Source: a virus (Duplodnaviria; Heunggongvirae; Uroviricota; Caudoviricetes). From it: a DNA stretch of 5,488 nt. The DNA is taken from the IMG/VR virus record IMGVR_UViG_2778261674_000019, positions 1-5,488 of that record; one strand, given 5' to 3'. This document shows positions 1 to 5,488 of this stretch, piece after piece. The stretch's first letter is position 1, and each line of letters begins with the position of its first letter. The notes below the pieces were generated by a model. It ran no database searches. It was not told the origin of the DNA and saw only the letters and a program-made list of their open reading frames with translations. The position numbers and the translations under genes are program-made.

Positions 1-297
1 CCCGCCAGCAGTGCGATGCGCCAGCATTGCCGCAAATACGGAGGCCGGGGAGTCGTAATACGCCAGCAGTGATTCTCCGTGTGGTGTCAGGTAGTGCAAC
101 GCCAGCCCGTGTGGTGTGAAGTCCACGCGGTAGCAGTCGTCTACTGTGAAATAAAGGGTGTCTGCATTCTCCGGTTTTGTGGTGCGTGCTCTGTTGTCAC
201 GACCACGGATGTAGAGATCAAATAATCCCTGAAGAACGGGAGCCAGACGGGTGTCCTGTGTGCGCACCCATCTTGTGAAGTCATGAGCGTCAATCAT
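1..297 (-). CDS. Hypothetical protein, 5' end only (3' end beyond left edge); sits where an antirepressor would in an immI-like module
   Basis: Open - strand frame from ATG at 297..295 to position 1 with no stop (99 codons visible, MIDAHDFTRWVRTQDTRLAPVLQGLFDLYIRGRDN...). SD-like AAAGAGAA about 8 nt upstream. Same frame and strand as the 76-aa gene, 72 nt downstream of its stop. Not in the ORF track, presumably because no stop is in the window. Confidence 0.5.
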   Translation of the reverse strand, partial: MIDAHDFTRWVRTQDTRLAPVLQGLFDLYIRGRDNRARTTKPENADTLYFTVDDCYRVDFTPHGLALHYLTPHGESLLAYYDSPASVFAAMLAHRTAGG

Positions 298-369
298 GCT
301 GCAATTCTCTTTACTACAGATGTGCGAAGGCCTCCCGCCGCAAGGTGCAGGAAAGGCCCGGAACAGGAA

Positions 370-600
370 TTAATGGAGTTTGTTTTGCTGCTGGAAGAGT
401 TGTTGCAGCTCGCGCAGATCATCCGCCAGATAGCTGAAAACAGAGGCGGAATAGATGTTCGATAGCGCGTGGCTGCGCTCATGCAGCATATTGATGTGCA
501 TGATTTGCGCGACGCGTGATGCGCGGAAAAGTCTACGGTTGATTTCAGTCTGGATGTGACGACGCTCCGCGATAGCGCGGTGCTGTTTGCGGTTTGCCAT
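370..600 (-). CDS. Small basic protein (76 aa, R/H/Q-rich), unknown function; sits where icd would in a P1 immI-like module
   Basis: ORF-track ORF with ATG at 600..598 and SD GAAGAGG (rc of 610..616) about 10 nt upstream. No family recognised from the sequence. Confidence 0.6.
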   Translation of the reverse strand: MANRKQHRAIAERRHIQTEINRRLFRASRVAQIMHINMLHERSHALSNIYSASVFSYLADDLRELQQLFQQQNKLH

Positions 601-608
601 GGTGTTTG

Positions 609-660
609 GCCTCTTCGTTTGTGAGTTTTTGGATACTCACCAACCAGAGTTGAGAATCTC
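609..660 (-). promoter_or_regulatory. Translation-initiation region of the 76-aa gene carrying two putative antisense target boxes (b2 CAAACGAAGA overlapping the SD, a2 UUCUCAAC) separated by a small hairpin
   Basis: b2 is rc of 612..621 and is complementary to the 12-nt loop of the structured domain (695..706). a2 is rc of 649..656 and is complementary to the single-stranded stretch at 682..689. Hairpin GTGAG-N10-CTCAC at 621..640. Confidence 0.4.
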
Positions 661-665
661 GGGGT

Positions 666-741
666 GGCGAGACGTACGGGGTTCTCAACACCGGCAAACG
701 AAGAAACCGGCCCGACCGAAGTCGGCCCCGTACGCCCCACC
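666..741 (-). ncRNA. Candidate c4-like antisense RNA domain (~76 nt)
   Basis: On the - strand, GGUGGGGCGUACGGGG (rc of 726..741) pairs with CCCCGUACGUCUCGCC (rc of 666..681) as a 16-bp closing helix with 3 G-U pairs. Inside are a C(UUCG)G tetraloop hairpin (712..725), a CCGG/CCGG stem with 12-nt loop UUUCUUCGUUUG (691..710) and a single-stranded GUUGAGAA (682..689). The loop and linker are complementary to boxes present twice nearby. Strand and exact ends are inferred. Confidence 0.35.
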
Positions 742-770
742 ATAATTCGTGTGCGAAAAAGACGTGGCAA
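742..770 (-). promoter_or_regulatory. Candidate sigma70 promoter, leftward: -35 TTGCCA (rc of 765..770), 17-bp spacer, -10 AATTAT (rc of 742..747)
   Basis: Hexamer match only; 5/6 for -35 and 4/6 for -10. Would start transcription at the 5' side of the structured domain. Confidence 0.25.
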
Positions 771-781
771 TACAGTACGCA

Positions 782-803
782 CAAAAAAACCGCTGGCGCG
801 GTT
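782..803 (-). terminator. Intrinsic terminator for the leftward early operon
   Basis: On the - strand: AACCGC-GCCA-GCGGTT hairpin (6-bp stem, 4-nt loop) followed by a U-tract of 7 in total. On the + strand it is preceded by A7 with no T-run after it, so it is unidirectional. The stem is short, so strength is uncertain. Confidence 0.4.
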
Positions 804-808
804 GTGCG

Positions 809-836
809 CTTCGTTTGTCAGCAGGTTGAGAATCCC
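809..836 (-). promoter_or_regulatory. Upstream copy of the two target boxes (b1 ACAAACGAAG, a1 GAUUCUCAAC) in the 3' region of the early operon
   Basis: Direct repeats of the boxes next to the 76-aa gene start: CTTCGTTTGT at 613..622 and 809..818; GTTGAGAATC at 649..658 and 825..834. Confidence 0.35.
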
Positions 837-862
837 GGCACCCGTTTTATGAGGTGCAGCAG

Positions 863-892
863 AAATGTAACCTGACTGATTGCGGCATGGCA
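863..892 (-). promoter_or_regulatory. Second candidate leftward promoter: -35 TTGCCA (rc of 887..892), ~18-bp spacer, -10 TACATT
   Basis: Hexamer match only. Would drive a transcript containing a1/b1, the terminator-like hairpin, the structured domain and a2/b2. Confidence 0.2.
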
Positions 893-925
893 AGCGGTTT
901 TTTTGTGTGTGCATGCTCTGATTTC

Positions 926-1225
926 TTACTGGTTCAGAAAAAAATCAAAAACCTTGTCAATGCGTTGCAACAGCTCTTGCTGTATTGCTTCCGGCGTTTC
1001 CGGTTCGCCTGGCGCCTCCAATGTCGCGCAGAAATCATCGATTTCATGATGGAGCGTCAGGCGAATGGCAGGAGCCGTGGTTCTGGCGTGCTCCAGCTCA
1101 TCCAGCAATGCCAGCACCGCAGACGGCGAGAGCATTGCGCGAAATGCCAGTAATTTTTGAGGTGTTGCCATTCGTTGCAGGGCAAATGCCAGTTCGCGTA
1201 GCTTCTGGTGGTTGATGGTGCTCAT
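926..1225 (-). CDS. Ead/Ea22-like prophage protein (99 aa)
   Basis: ORF-track ORF. Start ATG overlaps the upstream stop as ATGA. Contains the motif SPSAVLALLDELE, which I recall as characteristic of Ead/Ea22-like proteins of lambdoid prophages; family call is from memory. Confidence 0.6.
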   Translation of the reverse strand: MSTINHQKLRELAFALQRMATPQKLLAFRAMLSPSAVLALLDELEHARTTAPAIRLTLHHEIDDFCATLEAPGEPETPEAIQQELLQRIDKVFDFFLNQ

Positions 1226-1488
1226 GTTCTGGCTTCCTTCAGTAGCTGGTTAAACATGTGAGTAAGTGGATTGCTACACCCGAACGGCATCGGGTTTACG
1301 TGGTAAGAAGCCTGGCCTCCAGTTTTGCGAGCGCGACCACCTGTGCTGCGGTTTGTTCTGATGACTAAGCCGCCGCGCCAAAGTTGGCGTAACTCAGCAT
1401 TAATGGCTGTGGTTGGAGTATTCAGTGCTGCTGCGATTTCTCCGCCGCTACAACCCGGATGGGTAGCGATGTAGTCCAGAATGGTCAT
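1222..1488 (-). CDS. Probable winged-helix DNA-binding protein (88 aa)
   Basis: ORF-track ORF. ATGA start/stop overlap with the upstream gene. N-terminal ILDYIATHPGCSGGEIAAAL...LRQLWRGGLVIR resembles a winged HTH; Gly/Arg-rich basic tail. Confidence 0.6.
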   Translation of the reverse strand: MTILDYIATHPGCSGGEIAAALNTPTTAINAELRQLWRGGLVIRTNRSTGGRARKTGGQASYHVNPMPFGCSNPLTHMFNQLLKEART

Positions 1489-1688
1489 CTGCGTGGCTCC
1501 TGTACCTGTCGGATAAGATTCACCCGCGCCACGTTGGTGGCGCAGAAATAAGTGCCGTCAGTGAGGTAGATGTGGTGTGCATCCTTTTCCGAACGATGTT
1601 TGTCGATAGTGGTAATCAGTCGTTCGTCGACCTCGTATTCGCGCCCTCTGGAGGTAAAGCGAACGACGGGGAAATGCTTAATTGCCAT
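1485..1688 (-). CDS. Hypothetical protein (67 aa)
   Basis: ORF-track ORF with SD AAAGGGGG about 5 nt upstream of ATG 1688; stop overlaps the next start. Confidence 0.6.
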   Translation of the reverse strand: MAIKHFPVVRFTSRGREYEVDERLITTIDKHRSEKDAHHIYLTDGTYFCATNVARVNLIRQVQEPRR

Positions 1689-1711
1689 TGCGCCCCCTTT
1701 GTCCAGTAACC

Positions 1712-2122
1712 CTATGCGTTAAATACGGTGTGTCGGGCGTCATCAATGAATGCAACTTGAGAGCGCTCTATCAGGCGGAGATTTGTCAGAAGCGCTGATT
1801 CCCTTATGGGGTGAGGAGTGATCAGGTATTTGTCCTGTAATCCGGCAATAATGGTGTATCGCTGTAGCTCTGAGCCAATTGTGTAAATAAGGCGTCCGGT
1901 GTTAGATAAATCCAGTTCGGTGACTGGTTGAGTTTTGAAAAGCGTAAGTTCCGCACCCTGTTCTTCGATGATTTTGGCGGCTTCTGCCGTGACTTTTGCG
2001 ACTATCATTGTGTGGGTCGCGACGTCTATATGATTATTTGCTACGGCTTTTTTCGCTACTTCGCTTTCCATCTTTGAAATTTCTTTCAGTGCTCTGATGA
2101 TACCTTCTTCTTTTGCGTGCAT
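1712..2122 (-). CDS. Hypothetical protein (136 aa)
   Basis: ORF-track ORF with SD GGAGAT about 7 nt upstream of ATG 2122. Follows a 93-bp AT-rich gap. No family recognised. Confidence 0.65.
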   Translation of the reverse strand: MHAKEEGIIRALKEISKMESEVAKKAVANNHIDVATHTMIVAKVTAEAAKIIEEQGAELTLFKTQPVTELDLSNTGRLIYTIGSELQRYTIIAGLQDKYLITPHPIRESALLTNLRLIERSQVAFIDDARHTVFNA

Positions 2123-2215
2123 TTTTGTATCTCCGTTATCTGCGTGTGCGAATACCTCCGTTAATACGGATGGTTTTCACGTTTTCTTATTTAATTTGAT
2201 GTTTTATTTGTATCG

Positions 2216-2329
2216 TTATTCACCAGTGAAAAAACGTTCAATCTTTTTTACTGAATGAATAATTCGCATAATCCCAATGGCGCAGGCCACTGAAATAATC
2301 AGAGCAAGCCATGAAATAAATATACTCAT
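2216..2329 (-). CDS. Small single-pass membrane peptide (37 aa, MSIFISWLALIISVACAIGIMRIIHSVKKIERFFTGE), candidate membrane-active toxin or kil-type peptide
   Basis: Hand-translated; below the ORF-track size cutoff. ATG 2329..2327 overlaps the TGA stop of the upstream gene (2326..2328) as ATGA. Hydrophobic residues 3-21, then a basic tail. Confidence 0.4.
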   Translation of the reverse strand: MSIFISWLALIISVACAIGIMRIIHSVKKIERFFTGE

Positions 2330-2568
2330 GCGATATTCCCCAGCTTATACGGTTCAATATGTTCCCCGCATTCTGCGGCACAGATTAGCTCGGAAAGTTC
2401 GTTAAGTGCATCCAGATCATCAGCGTAAAAAGCCACGTCATACAGACTCCGGATTGCCCTGGTCAATGAGTCACGGGCTGCACGTTCAGCATGAGCGCCT
2501 GATGCACTTAAGCGAAAATAAAAACGCTCAAGTGCTTTGTTAATGAGAGTTTTATATTCTTTGCCCAT
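2326..2568 (-). CDS. Hypothetical protein (80 aa)
   Basis: ORF-track ORF with SD AAAGGG upstream of ATG 2568; 11 nt after the previous stop. Confidence 0.6.
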   Translation of the reverse strand: MGKEYKTLINKALERFYFRLSASGAHAERAARDSLTRAIRSLYDVAFYADDLDALNELSELICAAECGEHIEPYKLGNIA

Positions 2569-2579
2569 CGCAACGCCCT

Positions 2580-2867
2580 TTAATCTGCTTTCTGAATTTC
2601 AGCTTCTGAATCCATACAAATAATTTCGATATATGGTTCATCGCCATTAACCTGACGTGCCTTTTCAGCTTCACTAATGATTTCTCGTACGGTCTGGTAC
2701 GGAAGTTCCACAAGCAGTCGCGTGCCGTTCAGATAAACGTAAGTGGCTTCGTTGGCTCCGTTTTTACCCGCCGGAGCCACTCCATCAATAGCGGATGCGC
2801 GTAATAACAGTTCACCGCGAAAATCAATAAAACGGATAAATACACCTTGTGCATGCTCTTTGGTCAT
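2580..2867 (-). CDS. Hypothetical protein (95 aa)
   Basis: ORF-track ORF with SD AGGTGA 3-4 nt upstream of ATG 2867; 10 nt after the previous stop. Confidence 0.6.
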   Translation of the reverse strand: MTKEHAQGVFIRFIDFRGELLLRASAIDGVAPAGKNGANEATYVYLNGTRLLVELPYQTVREIISEAEKARQVNGDEPYIEIICMDSEAEIQKAD

Positions 2868-2877
2868 AAATCACCTG

Positions 2878-3231
2878 TTATAAATCAGTCTGTTTAATAA
2901 AACTCTGTCCACGCAGCAGACGATCAACCGTGCGAAGCGCTTCGTATAATGTGAAATCCTGCCCGAACTGATTGTCGCCGCTGCTTAGAGCAAAAATGCG
3001 GTTTCCAGTAAACGGATTGCGTGGGCATCTGTGAACCACGATTCCAGCCTTCTCAATCAGCCAGGTATGCTCGCCGATTTGTTTTACAGCGTGGCCATCC
3101 GGCGTTGCGTGTGTATCACTCAGGCTGTAGCGGATGTTGCTGCGTGATGCACTGGTAGCGAAACGGTTAGCATGGCGTTCCGCCCCGTTGCGGAAACGTT
3201 GTTGTGAAGAATTACGCTGTTGCTTATTCAT
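2878..3231 (-). CDS. Hypothetical protein (117 aa from ATG 3231; 120 aa if the GTG at 3240 is used), basic Q/R/S-rich N-terminus
   Basis: ORF-track ORF 2878..3240. The in-frame ATG at 3231 has a better SD (GAGGTG about 9 nt upstream). Confidence 0.6.
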   Translation of the reverse strand: MNKQQRNSSQQRFRNGAERHANRFATSASRSNIRYSLSDTHATPDGHAVKQIGEHTWLIEKAGIVVHRCPRNPFTGNRIFALSSGDNQFGQDFTLYEALRTVDRLLRGQSFIKQTDL

Positions 3232-3242
3232 TTTTTGCACCT

Positions 3243-3449
3243 CTACCCGATAAACCAGATGACAAACACCATGATCATTGCCCCAATGGCAGCCGGAAAA
3301 AGACCTCTGGCATAAGCAGTGATGTATTCAACATTGAGAGCCATAAAGCGTTCCTCATACCCTGTTAATTTGCGAAGAAGCCAAATCACTACCACGCCCA
3401 CTTCAAAAAGAACGAGGGTCAAAATGATATTGGTGATGTTGTTGGTCAT
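3243..3449 (-). CDS. Small two-helix membrane protein (68 aa)
   Basis: Internal ATG (3449..3447) of the track ORF 3243..3698; the upstream part of that ORF overlaps the cox-position gene out of frame. Two hydrophobic helices (NIILTLVLFEVGVVVIWLL and LFPAAIGAMIMVFVIWFIG). Starts 10 nt after the previous stop; SD is weak and distant (GAAGG at -17). Confidence 0.5.
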   Translation of the reverse strand: MTNNITNIILTLVLFEVGVVVIWLLRKLTGYEERFMALNVEYITAYARGLFPAAIGAMIMVFVIWFIG

Positions 3450-3459
3450 TTTTGTGTGT

Positions 3460-3981
3460 TTAGTTGCCTTCGCTGCTTTTGAGTCGCTCCAGCTTTGAGC
3501 TTCTACCCATATAAACCCGTTTTCCGTTAACGGTCTGGCAGTCTTCTTTGTCGGCTGGAGAGAACTTTCTTTTCTGGCGGTCATACGTCCAGTAACTTTT
3601 CCAGTTGTGCCATTCTGGGGGCTCGTACTCTGGTAGCTCATCAGCCAACTTGTCCCACTCTTTGGCGTTAAACCACCATACTCCGTCTGAGTTTTCATCT
3701 TCTGGGTTTGTGCGCGTTTTGTGTCCCGGCATTTGACCGCGATGAATGGCTACGCGCAGTGCAGATTTTGTTAGGCCAATATATGCCGCGCCTTTTTCCA
3801 GAGAGCAAAGCCCGGCGATCGGACCATCCAGCCGTAAAGTCGCTCCTTTTTTGTAGGAGCGCTTTTTCTTGTTTTCTTCGTGTTCGTCGTCGTTGGCGGC
3901 ATCAATGGATCCGCTGAGTGTGTCACTTTCCTGAAGTGGTTGGTGGTCAGATAACTCTTTATCGGCAATGAAGTCCCGCAT
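3460..3981 (-). CDS. Excisionase-family HTH DNA-binding protein in the cox/apl position (173 aa)
   Basis: ORF-track ORF with strong SD AAGAGGA about 6 nt upstream of ATG 3981. Central segment GAAYIGLTKSALRVAIHRGQMPGHK...DGVWWFNAKEWDKL resembles Xis/AlpA-type HTH domains. First gene of the operon divergent from the repressor. Confidence 0.65.
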   Translation of the reverse strand: MRDFIADKELSDHQPLQESDTLSGSIDAANDDEHEENKKKRSYKKGATLRLDGPIAGLCSLEKGAAYIGLTKSALRVAIHRGQMPGHKTRTNPEDENSDGVWWFNAKEWDKLADELPEYEPPEWHNWKSYWTYDRQKRKFSPADKEDCQTVNGKRVYMGRSSKLERLKSSEGN

Positions 3982-4084
3982 TTGTTATCCTCTTGCGTTG
4001 GTGCGCTTGTTGCGCCTTGTGATGGTTTGTTTTGGTTTGTTTTCTTCACCGTGTGGTGAAGAGCGAAAAGAGGATACTCATCGT
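3982..4084. promoter_or_regulatory. Divergent lysis/lysogeny switch region (Pe-like and Pc-like promoters with operators)
   Basis: 103-bp gap between divergent start codons. Tandem imperfect repeats TTGGTGCGC/TTGTTGCGC (3998..4015), perfect tandem GGTTTGTTTT x2 (4024..4043), palindrome TCTTCACC-GTGT-GGTGAAGA (4043..4062), and inverted AAGAGGATA SD boxes at each end (3986..3994 rc, 4068..4076). Promoter hexamers not confidently placed. Confidence 0.6.
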
Positions 4085-4426
4085 ATGGTGAACATGTCAA
4101 GAGATTACGCCAAAAAACTAAAGGCGATCAGAAATGCGGAAAAACTTACACAATCTCAGTTTTCGCAAGTAACGGGGGTTTCTGTAGGGACTATAGGAAA
4201 TTATGAGTCTGGATATAAACCTGCGCGAATTGAGGTTGTAGAAAAAGTAATCCAGGTCGAGCGATTCGAAAAATACACTATGTGGATACTTCACGACAAA
4301 ACATTTCCCGCTGCCGGGCAGGTTGCTCCGGCTCTCTCTCTTGATGGCTCTATTCAGTCGGAGGGCGATCAGGTTTCAATCGGCATTACCCAAAAATCAC
4401 CCCGATCAGGCCGCAATGTTGGCTGA
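4085..4426 (+). CDS. P2 C-like immunity repressor, HTH (114 aa)
   Basis: Internal ATG of track ORF 3968..4426, with SD AAGAGGA (4068..4074) 10 nt upstream. Resembles phage P2 repressor C as I recall it (KYTMWILHDK, AGQVAPAL). Directly upstream of and co-directional with int, as in P2. Confidence 0.8.
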   Translation: MVNMSRDYAKKLKAIRNAEKLTQSQFSQVTGVSVGTIGNYESGYKPARIEVVEKVIQVERFEKYTMWILHDKTFPAAGQVAPALSLDGSIQSEGDQVSIGITQKSPRSGRNVG

Positions 4427-4495
4427 CGCTACACATTGAGCGAATTACATCTCGCAAGGAGTGTTTAGTTAATTTATCCGTTGGAGGGGCTAATC

Positions 4496-5488
4496 ATGTC
4501 GATTAAGCAACTCAAAGACGGACGTTATCAGGTTGATGTAAGGCCTCAGGGTGCGGAAGGAAAGCGGATTCGAAAAATCTTCACCCTGAAATCAAAGGCT
4601 CAGGAGTTTGAGAAGTATGTGTTACAGAACTTCCATGACAAGCCATGGCAGGCTAAGCCAGCTGATCAGCGGCGATTATCAGAGTTACTTGATGCGTGGT
4701 GGATGCTTGACGGGCGTAATCAGGCTTACGGGGATAGCTACAGGGTCAGGTTAGGGAAGGTTATTCGTGAAATGGGGGATCCTCGTGCCAGTCAGATGAC
4801 GCGAAAATTTATGCTCGAGTATCGGTCAGAGAAATTACAGGCCGGATTAATGCCGTCCAGTATTAATCGTGACTTATGCGTTCTGTCTACCATGTTCACG
4901 GTGCTGATTGAAGCTGAGGTCTTTCACAACGCGAACCCTGTACGCGGTATACGCAAGCTGAAAGTTCAGAACACAGAGATGGCCTTTCTTTCTGATGATG
5001 AGATTGAGCGGCTTCTTGAGCGGCTGGAGGGGGATGCGCGTCGTGTTGCCATTCTGTGTCTTTCTACTGGTGCCCGATGGAGTGAAGCATCAGAACTACG
5101 TGGAGAGCATATCGTTGGCAACCGGGTTACGTTCTTTAACACCAAAAACGGAAAATCCCGTTCGGTTCCTGTGGCGGATTCGGTTGTGCCTCTGATTAAA
5201 ACCCGTCGAACGGGGTTGTTGTATCAGGTTGATTATCTGAAGTTCCGGGAGATTCTTCAGGAGGTGAAACCGGATTTACCGAAGGGGCAGGCTACGCATG
5301 TCATGCGTCATACATTTGCCACACACTTTATGATGAATGGCGGAAATATTGTTACGTTGCAACGAATCCTGGGGCACGCAACGATTCAGCAAACAATGAC
5401 GTACGCTCATTTTTCGCCGGACTTCTTACAGGACGCGATCAACTTTAATCCGCTGGCTGAAAGTGTCCATAAACTGTCCATCGATTAG
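4496..5488 (+). CDS. int: Tyrosine recombinase, phage P2 Int family (330 aa)
   Basis: ATG at 4496 with SD GGAGGGG 6 nt upstream; the track's TTG at 4481 is less likely. Strong resemblance to P2 Int (MSIKQLKDGRYQVDVRP..., ILCLSTGARWSEA, HVMRHTFATHFMMNGGNIVTLQRILGH, TMTYAHF with the catalytic Tyr). Stop TAG is the last codon of the window. Confidence 0.95.
   Translation: MSIKQLKDGRYQVDVRPQGAEGKRIRKIFTLKSKAQEFEKYVLQNFHDKPWQAKPADQRRLSELLDAWWMLDGRNQAYGDSYRVRLGKVIREMGDPRASQMTRKFMLEYRSEKLQAGLMPSSINRDLCVLSTMFTVLIEAEVFHNANPVRGIRKLKVQNTEMAFLSDDEIERLLERLEGDARRVAILCLSTGARWSEASELRGEHIVGNRVTFFNTKNGKSRSVPVADSVVPLIKTRRTGLLYQVDYLKFREILQEVKPDLPKGQATHVMRHTFATHFMMNGGNIVTLQRILGHATIQQTMTYAHFSPDFLQDAINFNPLAESVHKLSID

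Follow-up and report, generated by a model that had tools for sequence, protein, structure and literature searches.

A conserved small gene for a predicted single-pass membrane protein overlaps the DUF4754 gene in the early operon of P88-like Escherichia coli prophages

Does a 37-codon open reading frame (ORF) that starts within the stop codon of its upstream neighbour encode a working protein, and if it does, what could such a small product do? The question is raised by a 5,488-nucleotide (nt) stretch of tailed-phage DNA, IMG/VR record IMGVR_UViG_2778261674_000019, positions 1 to 5,488, hereafter the window. The 5.5-kb window is 86–98% identical to P88-like phages and many E. coli prophages and, as its sequence indicates, is the early (cox-to-A) lytic operon of a P88-like (Xuanwuvirus, Peduoviridae/P2-family) E. 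coli prophage. The ORF lies on the minus strand at 2216–2329, begins with ATG and encodes 37 amino acids (aa), MSIFISWLALIISVACAIGIMRIIHSVKKIERFFTGE. An earlier sequence-only reading had placed it here, with its ATG overlapping the stop of an 80-aa gene as ATGA, and both the ORF listing and a direct reading of the bases confirm this: the plus strand reads tcat, which is ATGA on the coding strand, and the ATG of the peptide gene and the TGA of the upstream gene, which belongs to the DUF4754 family, share four bases. A Shine-Dalgarno (SD)-like site within the 3' end of the DUF4754 gene precedes the ATG (Table 1); its GGGG core (2338–2341) lies 8 nt upstream, and the duplex with the 3' end of the 16S ribosomal RNA is worth −5.5 kcal/mol, against −3.3 to −10.7 kcal/mol for the other operon genes. 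The sequence-only reading gave the peptide gene as absent from its ORF track, and a list with a default cut-off of 60 aa would indeed leave it out. By itself, a 37-codon ORF means little, because the window has 76 ORFs of at least 25 aa. This one stands above chance because of comparative evidence, namely an intact frame, its substitution pattern and the behaviour of divergent alleles.

For the comparison, 85 related loci were anchored on the neighbouring DUF4754 gene, 80 of them from IMG/VR, two from species-representative genomes and three from annotated records. Every one of the 85 loci retains the start codon with its ATGA overlap and a frame that stays open for 37 codons or more; 29 distinct peptide variants occur among them. 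Of the variable sites, 17 fall at first, 9 at second and 26 at third codon positions, and the ratio of nonsynonymous to synonymous polymorphism (pN/pS) in the peptide frame is 0.27, or 0.21 when the three most divergent sequences are left out. The same ratio reaches 1.0–1.4 in the other two same-strand frames; of the reverse frames, two give 1.0 and 1.2, and the third, with which the wobble positions are shared, gives 0.38. The frame, whose conservation in homologs had been named as a check in the sequence-only reading, survives throughout, the sole changes being alternative C-terminal ends.

Furthermore, contigs were retrieved for five divergent 41-aa alleles, the divergent 41-aa peptides being 54–76% identical. 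On each contig the 41-aa gene begins at an ATGA overlap with an 80/81-aa gene, and an SD sequence (GAGGAG, GAGGTG, GGGGTG, CAGGAGG or CAGGTGG) stands in the same place. The order int, C, cox, DUF4761, DUF4754, peptide, ..., A is maintained in all allele types, and the genes 3' of the peptide vary. Across seven divergent alleles, the peptide gene shows a pS of 0.55, with synonymous sites near saturation, a pN of 0.20 and a ratio of nonsynonymous to synonymous substitution rates (dN/dS) of 0.23, compared with a dN/dS of 0.35 for DUF4754. Of 36 allele pairs, 31 show a higher identity for the peptide than for DUF4754, the means being 66% and 50%. Simultaneously, the alternative same-strand frames of these alleles carry stops in most cases (0–4 per frame and allele), with pN/pS of 0.9–2.0. 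Judged by this comparison, the ORF is a true gene whose coding frame is under purifying selection, and a translated peptide with a membrane location is very probable. The earlier claim of a real small gene is upheld by the frame intact at all 85 loci, by the pN/pS of 0.21–0.27 and by the gene, overlap and ribosome-binding site that the divergent alleles keep.

Residues 3–24 of the product are hydrophobic, with a Wimley–White octanol value of −11 kcal/mol and a mean Kyte–Doolittle hydropathy of 2.4, and transmembrane-segment scores run from −11 to −14 kcal/mol. AlphaFold2, given a 25-sequence alignment, models one helix over residues 2–34 with a predicted local distance difference test (pLDDT) score of 87. 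The product is predicted to be a single continuous helix, of which residues 3–21/24 span the inner membrane. The N-terminal flank (Met-Ser) is uncharged; the C-side carries R22, K28 and, at the end of the 41-aa forms, K-R-R-K. Under the positive-inside rule, an N-out/C-in topology is predicted from these charges. The tail, residues 25–37 (HSVKKIERFFTGE), contains three basic and two acidic residues for a net charge of +1. The earlier picture of a single helix followed by a basic tail is thus retained for the helix, on both hydropathy and the AlphaFold2 model; the tail is charged, not strongly basic.

Residues 22–34 are amphipathic, with a hydrophobic moment of 0.53–0.78 versus 0.15 for the transmembrane part. 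In this region R22, I23, I24, L/V/I27, K28, I30, E31, F/L33 and F34 are near-fixed, positions 25, 26, 29 and 32 vary freely, and the conserved face is the hydrophobic one plus K28 and E31. In the membrane part, the 25-sequence alignment shows no variation at S6, W7, L10, I11, A17 and G19 and has only Ser or Ala at position 13. Such a pattern of conservation suits a helix that packs on other helices and fits a pore less well. A lipoprotein or cleaved signal peptide, read from the motifs S-V-A-C and A-C-A, was considered and rejected: many alleles have Met, Ile, Ser or Ala in place of Cys16, and a basic n-region is lacking, residues 1–21 containing neither Lys nor Arg.

The coding region of the tail contains two homopolymers, T6 and A6 (Table 1), and a one-base slip in either produces alleles of 45–51 aa with an unrelated tail. 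A T6-to-T5 deletion, found in 7 of the 85 loci (L032, L033, L057, L072, L073, L075 and L078), changes the tail to ...ERFSLVNNDTNKTSN, and 45-aa clusters occur on many contigs. The 37-aa form amounts to a 41-aa one cut short by an earlier stop codon, and four codons beyond it the ancestral stop persists in frame.

The exact peptide sequence is present on at least 1000 contigs of the protein collection. A phmmer search of 1.84 billion representative proteins returned six clusters, all of one family, two of which are 41-aa forms with 68% and 57% identity. A profile search of 5.8 billion proteins yielded about 151 clusters at 90% identity, none of them a distant relative and nearly all from E. coli, together with E. 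albertii, E. fergusonii and a few Salmonella and Citrobacter. The family follows the pattern M-[SN]-[IV]-F-x-S-W-x-x-L-I...A-x-G-I-M-R-I-I-x-x-x-K-x-I-E-x-[FL]-F-T. By these matches, the peptide belongs to a narrow family of 37/41/45-aa proteins almost confined to Escherichia prophages of the P88-like type; in all loci examined, similarity in sequence goes together with a position directly 3' of DUF4754 and the 4-nt overlap. Among 5426 complete E. coli genomes, 1385 carry the gene, with up to three copies per genome, and the carriers include enterotoxigenic (ETEC), Shiga toxin-producing (STEC; O157, O145, O103, O45) and sequence type 131 (ST131) strains. About one quarter of complete E. coli genomes therefore carry a gene without a family model, a name or a literature.

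The gene is already annotated publicly, and hence is unstudied rather than undiscovered: it appears as "hypothetical protein" (WP_000021648.1), "putative membrane protein" (URC09552.1), "membrane protein" in phage P88 and "Prophage membrane protein" in UniRef. The peptide gave no significant match in Pfam, PHROGs, NCBIfam, PADLOC or PDB sequences; in Pfam at E values up to 0.1, the only hit was a sub-threshold YiaAB match (E 0.058, 14 bits versus a cut-off of 26.6). The annotation lesson is that a Pfam or PHROG model for this family is missing. With at most 50 aa, one transmembrane helix and purifying selection, the peptide can be placed, from its predicted features, among phage-encoded small single-pass membrane proteins, which are a functional class and not a homology family. 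Two records of the locus stand apart. One (L004, NZ_JBQPOM010000071.1) is assigned to the Gram-positive "Vagococcus sp. WN89Y"; its prophage region is of E. coli type, with a DUF4754 98% identical to that of the window, and is likely a contamination or mis-binning. The other, Escherichia phage 503458 (L096, NC_049341.1), holds a disrupted peptide copy that was set aside as uninformative, since several genes are frameshifted in that record: DUF4754, the peptide gene, which is unannotated there, and the replicase, split into two coding sequences. This distribution suggests homopolymer sequencing errors.

At each locus examined, the gene immediately before that of the peptide encodes an 80/81-aa DUF4754 homolog. 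Even in divergent loci, where the upstream proteins are 32–41% identical to that of the window, hhalign gives probabilities of 95% and 98.6%. Because of this constant adjacency and the overlap, DUF4754 is the obvious candidate partner of the peptide. Its AlphaFold2 model is a helical hairpin (helices 4–48 and 52–66, pLDDT 88.8), for which Foldseek found no match with E below 0.7 in PDB or BFVD; PDB sequence searches with DUF4754 and DUF4761 were uninformative. Database proteins of 103–128 aa labelled DUF4754 were considered as fusions with the peptide, and none of the longer forms inspected is one, these being frameshifts into the third frame or proteins with altered or extended N-termini. The frameshifted read-throughs (P0016, P0019, P0020, P0025, P0031, P0037, P0048 and P0052) enter the third frame, which is the 47-aa ORF of the window (Table 1), and most read-through proteins stand for one or a few sequences.

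From these features a mechanism can be tentatively proposed, in which the peptide is a partner or modulator of a larger protein; drawn from the sequence, the structural models and analogy, it is less likely than not, though likelier than any single rival. The peptide would be made only once induction or infection has relieved repression by C, and its level would be tied to that of DUF4754, with ribosomes terminating at the TGA and restarting at the overlapping ATG. It would then insert into the inner membrane and act by helix–helix contacts, not as a pore. The contacts within the membrane would be made via the conserved [S/A]13-x3-A17-x-G19 face, and those in the cytoplasm via the conserved amphipathic face. 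Most likely it would hold the DUF4754 hairpin at the membrane or act as its partner there, contact an inner-membrane protein of the host, or do both; it would serve early and modulate the host without being essential. Taken as a whole, the combination of a real gene with this partner or modulator role is the best explanation of the locus and is held to be somewhat probable.

Among cellular proteins, the closest likeness is to the small single-pass inner-membrane regulators of enterobacteria (MgrB, AcrZ, MgtS, SgrT, Blr and CydX) reviewed in PMC12648545. The peptide shares with MgrB-type regulators a length of at most 50 aa, one transmembrane helix, very short parts outside the membrane and conserved small residues, and like them it would be expected to act by binding a larger protein, not enzymatically. 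However, it differs in being phage-encoded within a repressor-controlled lytic operon, in having no sequence relationship with them, and in possessing a conserved amphipathic cytoplasmic extension and a fixed, overlapping upstream gene. Among phages, the operon slot of the peptide gene is occupied in phage 186 by fil, a cell-division inhibitor, and dhr, a host replication inhibitor, directly before the tR1 spacer; in phage P2, the corresponding early-operon stretch contains orf78 and B before a putative terminator. Fil (75 aa) and Dhr (66 aa) are, like the peptide, products of small, non-essential P2-family genes ahead of a spacer or terminator, but neither is a transmembrane peptide. A search of the P2 and 186 early operons for an equivalent transmembrane peptide found none, and the 186-type prophage CFT073 phi-b0847 has neither the peptide nor DUF4754.

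Several observations weigh against the partner or modulator role. The likeness to fil and dhr is positional only. The C-terminal end is evolutionarily loose, given its 37-, 41- and 45-aa forms. The peptide allele P0081 occurs behind two unlike DUF4754 alleles, 82% and 41% identical to that of the window (L091 and L092); such recombinants mean that the peptide and DUF4754 are not strictly co-inherited, and strict co-evolution is not seen. The ATGA overlap is kept in every allele type and so fits the translational coupling claimed in the sequence-only reading, but it is not special to this pair: it recurs at two further junctions of the operon (Table 1), the overlaps are routine there, and the coupling of the peptide to DUF4754 may be mere compaction. 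In addition, a common 41-aa allele, P0194 (260 contigs; with P0197, loci L105–L107), has Glu in place of Gly19, three residues before Arg22. This Glu19 is outside the 25-sequence alignment, lies inside the predicted membrane helix and weakens the argument from small-residue packing. Finally, a literature search for DUF4754, the peptide sequence and WP_000021648 found no paper, and the papers on P88 and phiSM contain no discussion of early genes.

A bolder extension, possible but doubtful, is that DUF4761, DUF4754 and the peptide form an unrecognised, conserved early module of P88-like phages. The conserved amphipathic cytoplasmic helix of the peptide would pack on the DUF4754 hairpin as a three-helix bundle, the slippage tails would tune or switch this contact, and the complex would act on a membrane-associated machine of the host. 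In such a module, the peptide would tether DUF4754 to the inner membrane at the start of lytic growth, and division, replication anchoring or transport would be candidate host targets. If the peptide does act on a host membrane machine, it would be a P2-family addition to the few known phage early host-takeover factors; if no such machine is targeted, it is an ordinary accessory gene. In either case, the peptide offers a clean and cheap target for work on phage small membrane proteins, with DUF4754 as the obvious candidate partner.

Another reading, judged unlikely, is that of a stand-alone membrane-damaging peptide of the Kil kind, which would oligomerise in the inner membrane early in lytic growth, dissipate the proton-motive force or block division and thereby shut the host down, with DUF4754 unrelated or moderating. 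The size, the single transmembrane helix and the charged C-tail match the build of small membrane toxins described in PMC12648545, and the gene sits in the operon slot of the host-inhibiting genes of 186. However, the transmembrane segment is uniformly apolar in most alleles, without polar or charged positions to line a pore, and the strongest conservation is found in the cytoplasmic amphipathic face, which is better suited to protein binding. The peptide matches no toxin family, and an early loss of membrane potential would harm phage replication. Homology with lambda Kil or 186 Fil likewise failed to appear, as Pfam gave no match and the family profile reached an hhalign probability of only 0.7% with Fil, over 7 columns. 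The resemblance between IMRIIH in the peptide and IIRIVH at the Fil C-terminus (I-x-R-I-x-H) was dismissed as chance.

Quite improbable, too, is a small membrane protein for superinfection exclusion or immunity, which would block DNA entry or the receptor function of competing phages. The predicted membrane location fits, and phage small inner-membrane proteins commonly serve exclusion, as do T4 Imm and Sp, HK97 gp15 and P22 SieA. Temperate-phage exclusion genes are usually expressed from the prophage, whereas the peptide gene belongs to a repressor-controlled early operon and has no promoter of its own above chance (2 promoter-like sites observed between 1600 and 3000, 2.0 expected), so a lysogen would not express it. 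Moreover, PADLOC gave no match, and the gene lies outside the known "moron" positions of P2, which are after gene A and between the tail genes G and FI (PMC3573123).

The spacer on the 3' side of the peptide gene (Table 1) bears on a further alternative, a type I toxin restrained by an antisense RNA. The 93 nt are conserved even where the next gene differs, as seen in an alignment of 56 distinct downstream sequences, and the flanks GAAAACCA and GGTATTCGCACAC are kept despite the differing downstream gene. The hairpin inside the spacer is conserved, with 98.8% of the alignment cells paired and a single covarying pair (CG/UA). It could be a site at which the mRNA is processed or stabilised, a barrier to antisense transcription or a linker for recombination. 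On the opposite strand, the same hairpin is followed by a T-rich run, and a terminator-like flag is raised for that strand in four allele contexts, that of the window included; just beyond the 3' end of the gene, such a structure could conceivably terminate an RNA antisense to the 3' untranslated region. The small (<60 aa) hydrophobic peptide with one predicted transmembrane helix also resembles the type I toxins (Hok/Gef, TisB, Ldr, ShoB, Ibs, DinQ and ZorO) in length, in its single hydrophobic helix and in its predicted inner-membrane location; it differs from them in a helix that is apolar in most alleles and in a gene that overlaps its neighbour by ATGA inside an operon. With its start codon inside the DUF4754 stop, the gene lacks both a 5' leader and a separate transcription unit. 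In addition, two G:U variants of the hairpin pair on the coding strand only, Rfam detects no antitoxin or toxin-leader family in the window, and Pfam and NCBIfam give no match to the toxin families (Hok/Gef, Ldr, TisB, Ibs, ShoB, Fst and others). Antisense promoter-like sites are not above chance and not conserved across four allele contexts: none occurs in L084, and in L091 and L086 they fall within the ORF, beyond the hairpin. A type I toxin is accordingly rated as very improbable.

A holin, antiholin or other lysis-timing peptide is just as hard to credit. One transmembrane helix and a charged C-terminus recall the holins and pinholins (P2 gpY, lambda S, phage 21 S68), from which the peptide departs in having one helix and about half the size of the smallest holins; 37 aa is far below the described holin sizes. 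In P2-family phages the lysis genes belong to the late region, whereas at every locus the peptide gene is part of the early operon, somewhere between cox and replicase A, with no endolysin nearby. A scan of the ten minus-strand operon proteins, the peptide among them, revealed no holin or endolysin family, and the peptide itself has no Pfam or PHROG holin match. The resemblance to type I toxins, Kil and holins drawn in the sequence-only reading thus goes no further than general shape: there is no family match, no transcription unit of its own, no conserved antisense promoter, and the gene is outside the lysis cassette.

Scarcely credible, lastly, is a non-functional ORF that has stayed open by accident or through selection acting on the DNA or RNA itself (signals at the DUF4754 3' end, a recombination linker), for although the ORF is short, has no family and adjoins a spacer likewise conserved at the nucleotide level, its substitutions concentrate at third codon positions, its divergent alleles combine a high pS and a much lower pN with stops in the alternative frames, and its amino-acid conservation tracks a helical face.

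The layout of the surrounding operon was read off annotated relatives, with the integrase and repressor on the plus strand and the early operon on the minus strand (Table 1). Its junctions are tightly packed, with gaps of 2–23 nt or 4-nt overlaps, and in relatives replicase A comes next, past the 76-aa "derepression" gene.

Table 1. Positions of the peptide gene, its parts and the neighbouring features in the window
Feature	Position	Strand	Basis or remark
37-aa peptide gene	2216–2329	−	ORF listing; stop TAA 2216–2218
Hydrophobic residues 3–24 of the peptide	2258–2323	−	
Tail residues 25–37 of the peptide	2219–2257	−	
ATGA start/stop overlap, DUF4754 gene/peptide gene	2326–2329	−	direct reading
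SD-like site GGGGA	2337–2341	−	7 nt before the ATG; inside the 3' end of the DUF4754 gene
Homopolymers in the tail-coding part	2229–2249	−	coding strand: A6 2244–2249, T6 2229–2234
Spacer 3' of the peptide gene, 93 nt	2123–2215	−	largest gap in this part of the operon
Spacer hairpin	core 2157–2170; extended 2148–2180	−	fold z-score −3.4, coding strand
47-aa ORF in the third frame	2238–2381	−	
Integrase gene	4496–5488	+	annotated relatives
C-type immunity repressor gene	about 4085–4426	+	annotated relatives
Cox-family gene	3460–3981	−	
68-aa two-helix membrane ORF	3243–3449	−	10 nt after the cox-like gene
DUF4761 gene	2878–3240	−	
95-aa gene	2580–2867	−	
DUF4754 gene, 80 aa	2326–2568	−	Pfam PF15946, E 2.8e-54
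136-aa, 67-aa, MarR-type and Ead-like genes		−	3' of the peptide gene, in this order
Further ATGA overlaps at operon junctions	1485–1488; 1222–1225	−	
isrK Hfq-binding RNA	783–857	−	next after the Ead-like gene, with C4; Rfam 62 bits, E 6e-12
C4 antisense RNA	660–747	−	Rfam 79 bits, E 6e-15
76-aa "derepression" gene	370–600	−	after the C4/isrK region; Pfam PF25738

Two minor observations concern other parts of the operon. The 68-aa gene encodes a membrane protein, MTNNITNIILTLVLFEVGVVVIWLL...GAMIMVFVIWFIG, with two hydrophobic segments; the ORF listing gives it solely inside a longer 151-aa ORF that overlaps cox, and a 68-aa homolog is found at the matching operon position in L105–L107. Meanwhile, the C4 and isrK RNAs adjoin within a 325-nt gap 5' of the PF25738 gene, and by its family matches this region is a P1/P7-style C4/anti-repressor control module within a P2-family prophage.

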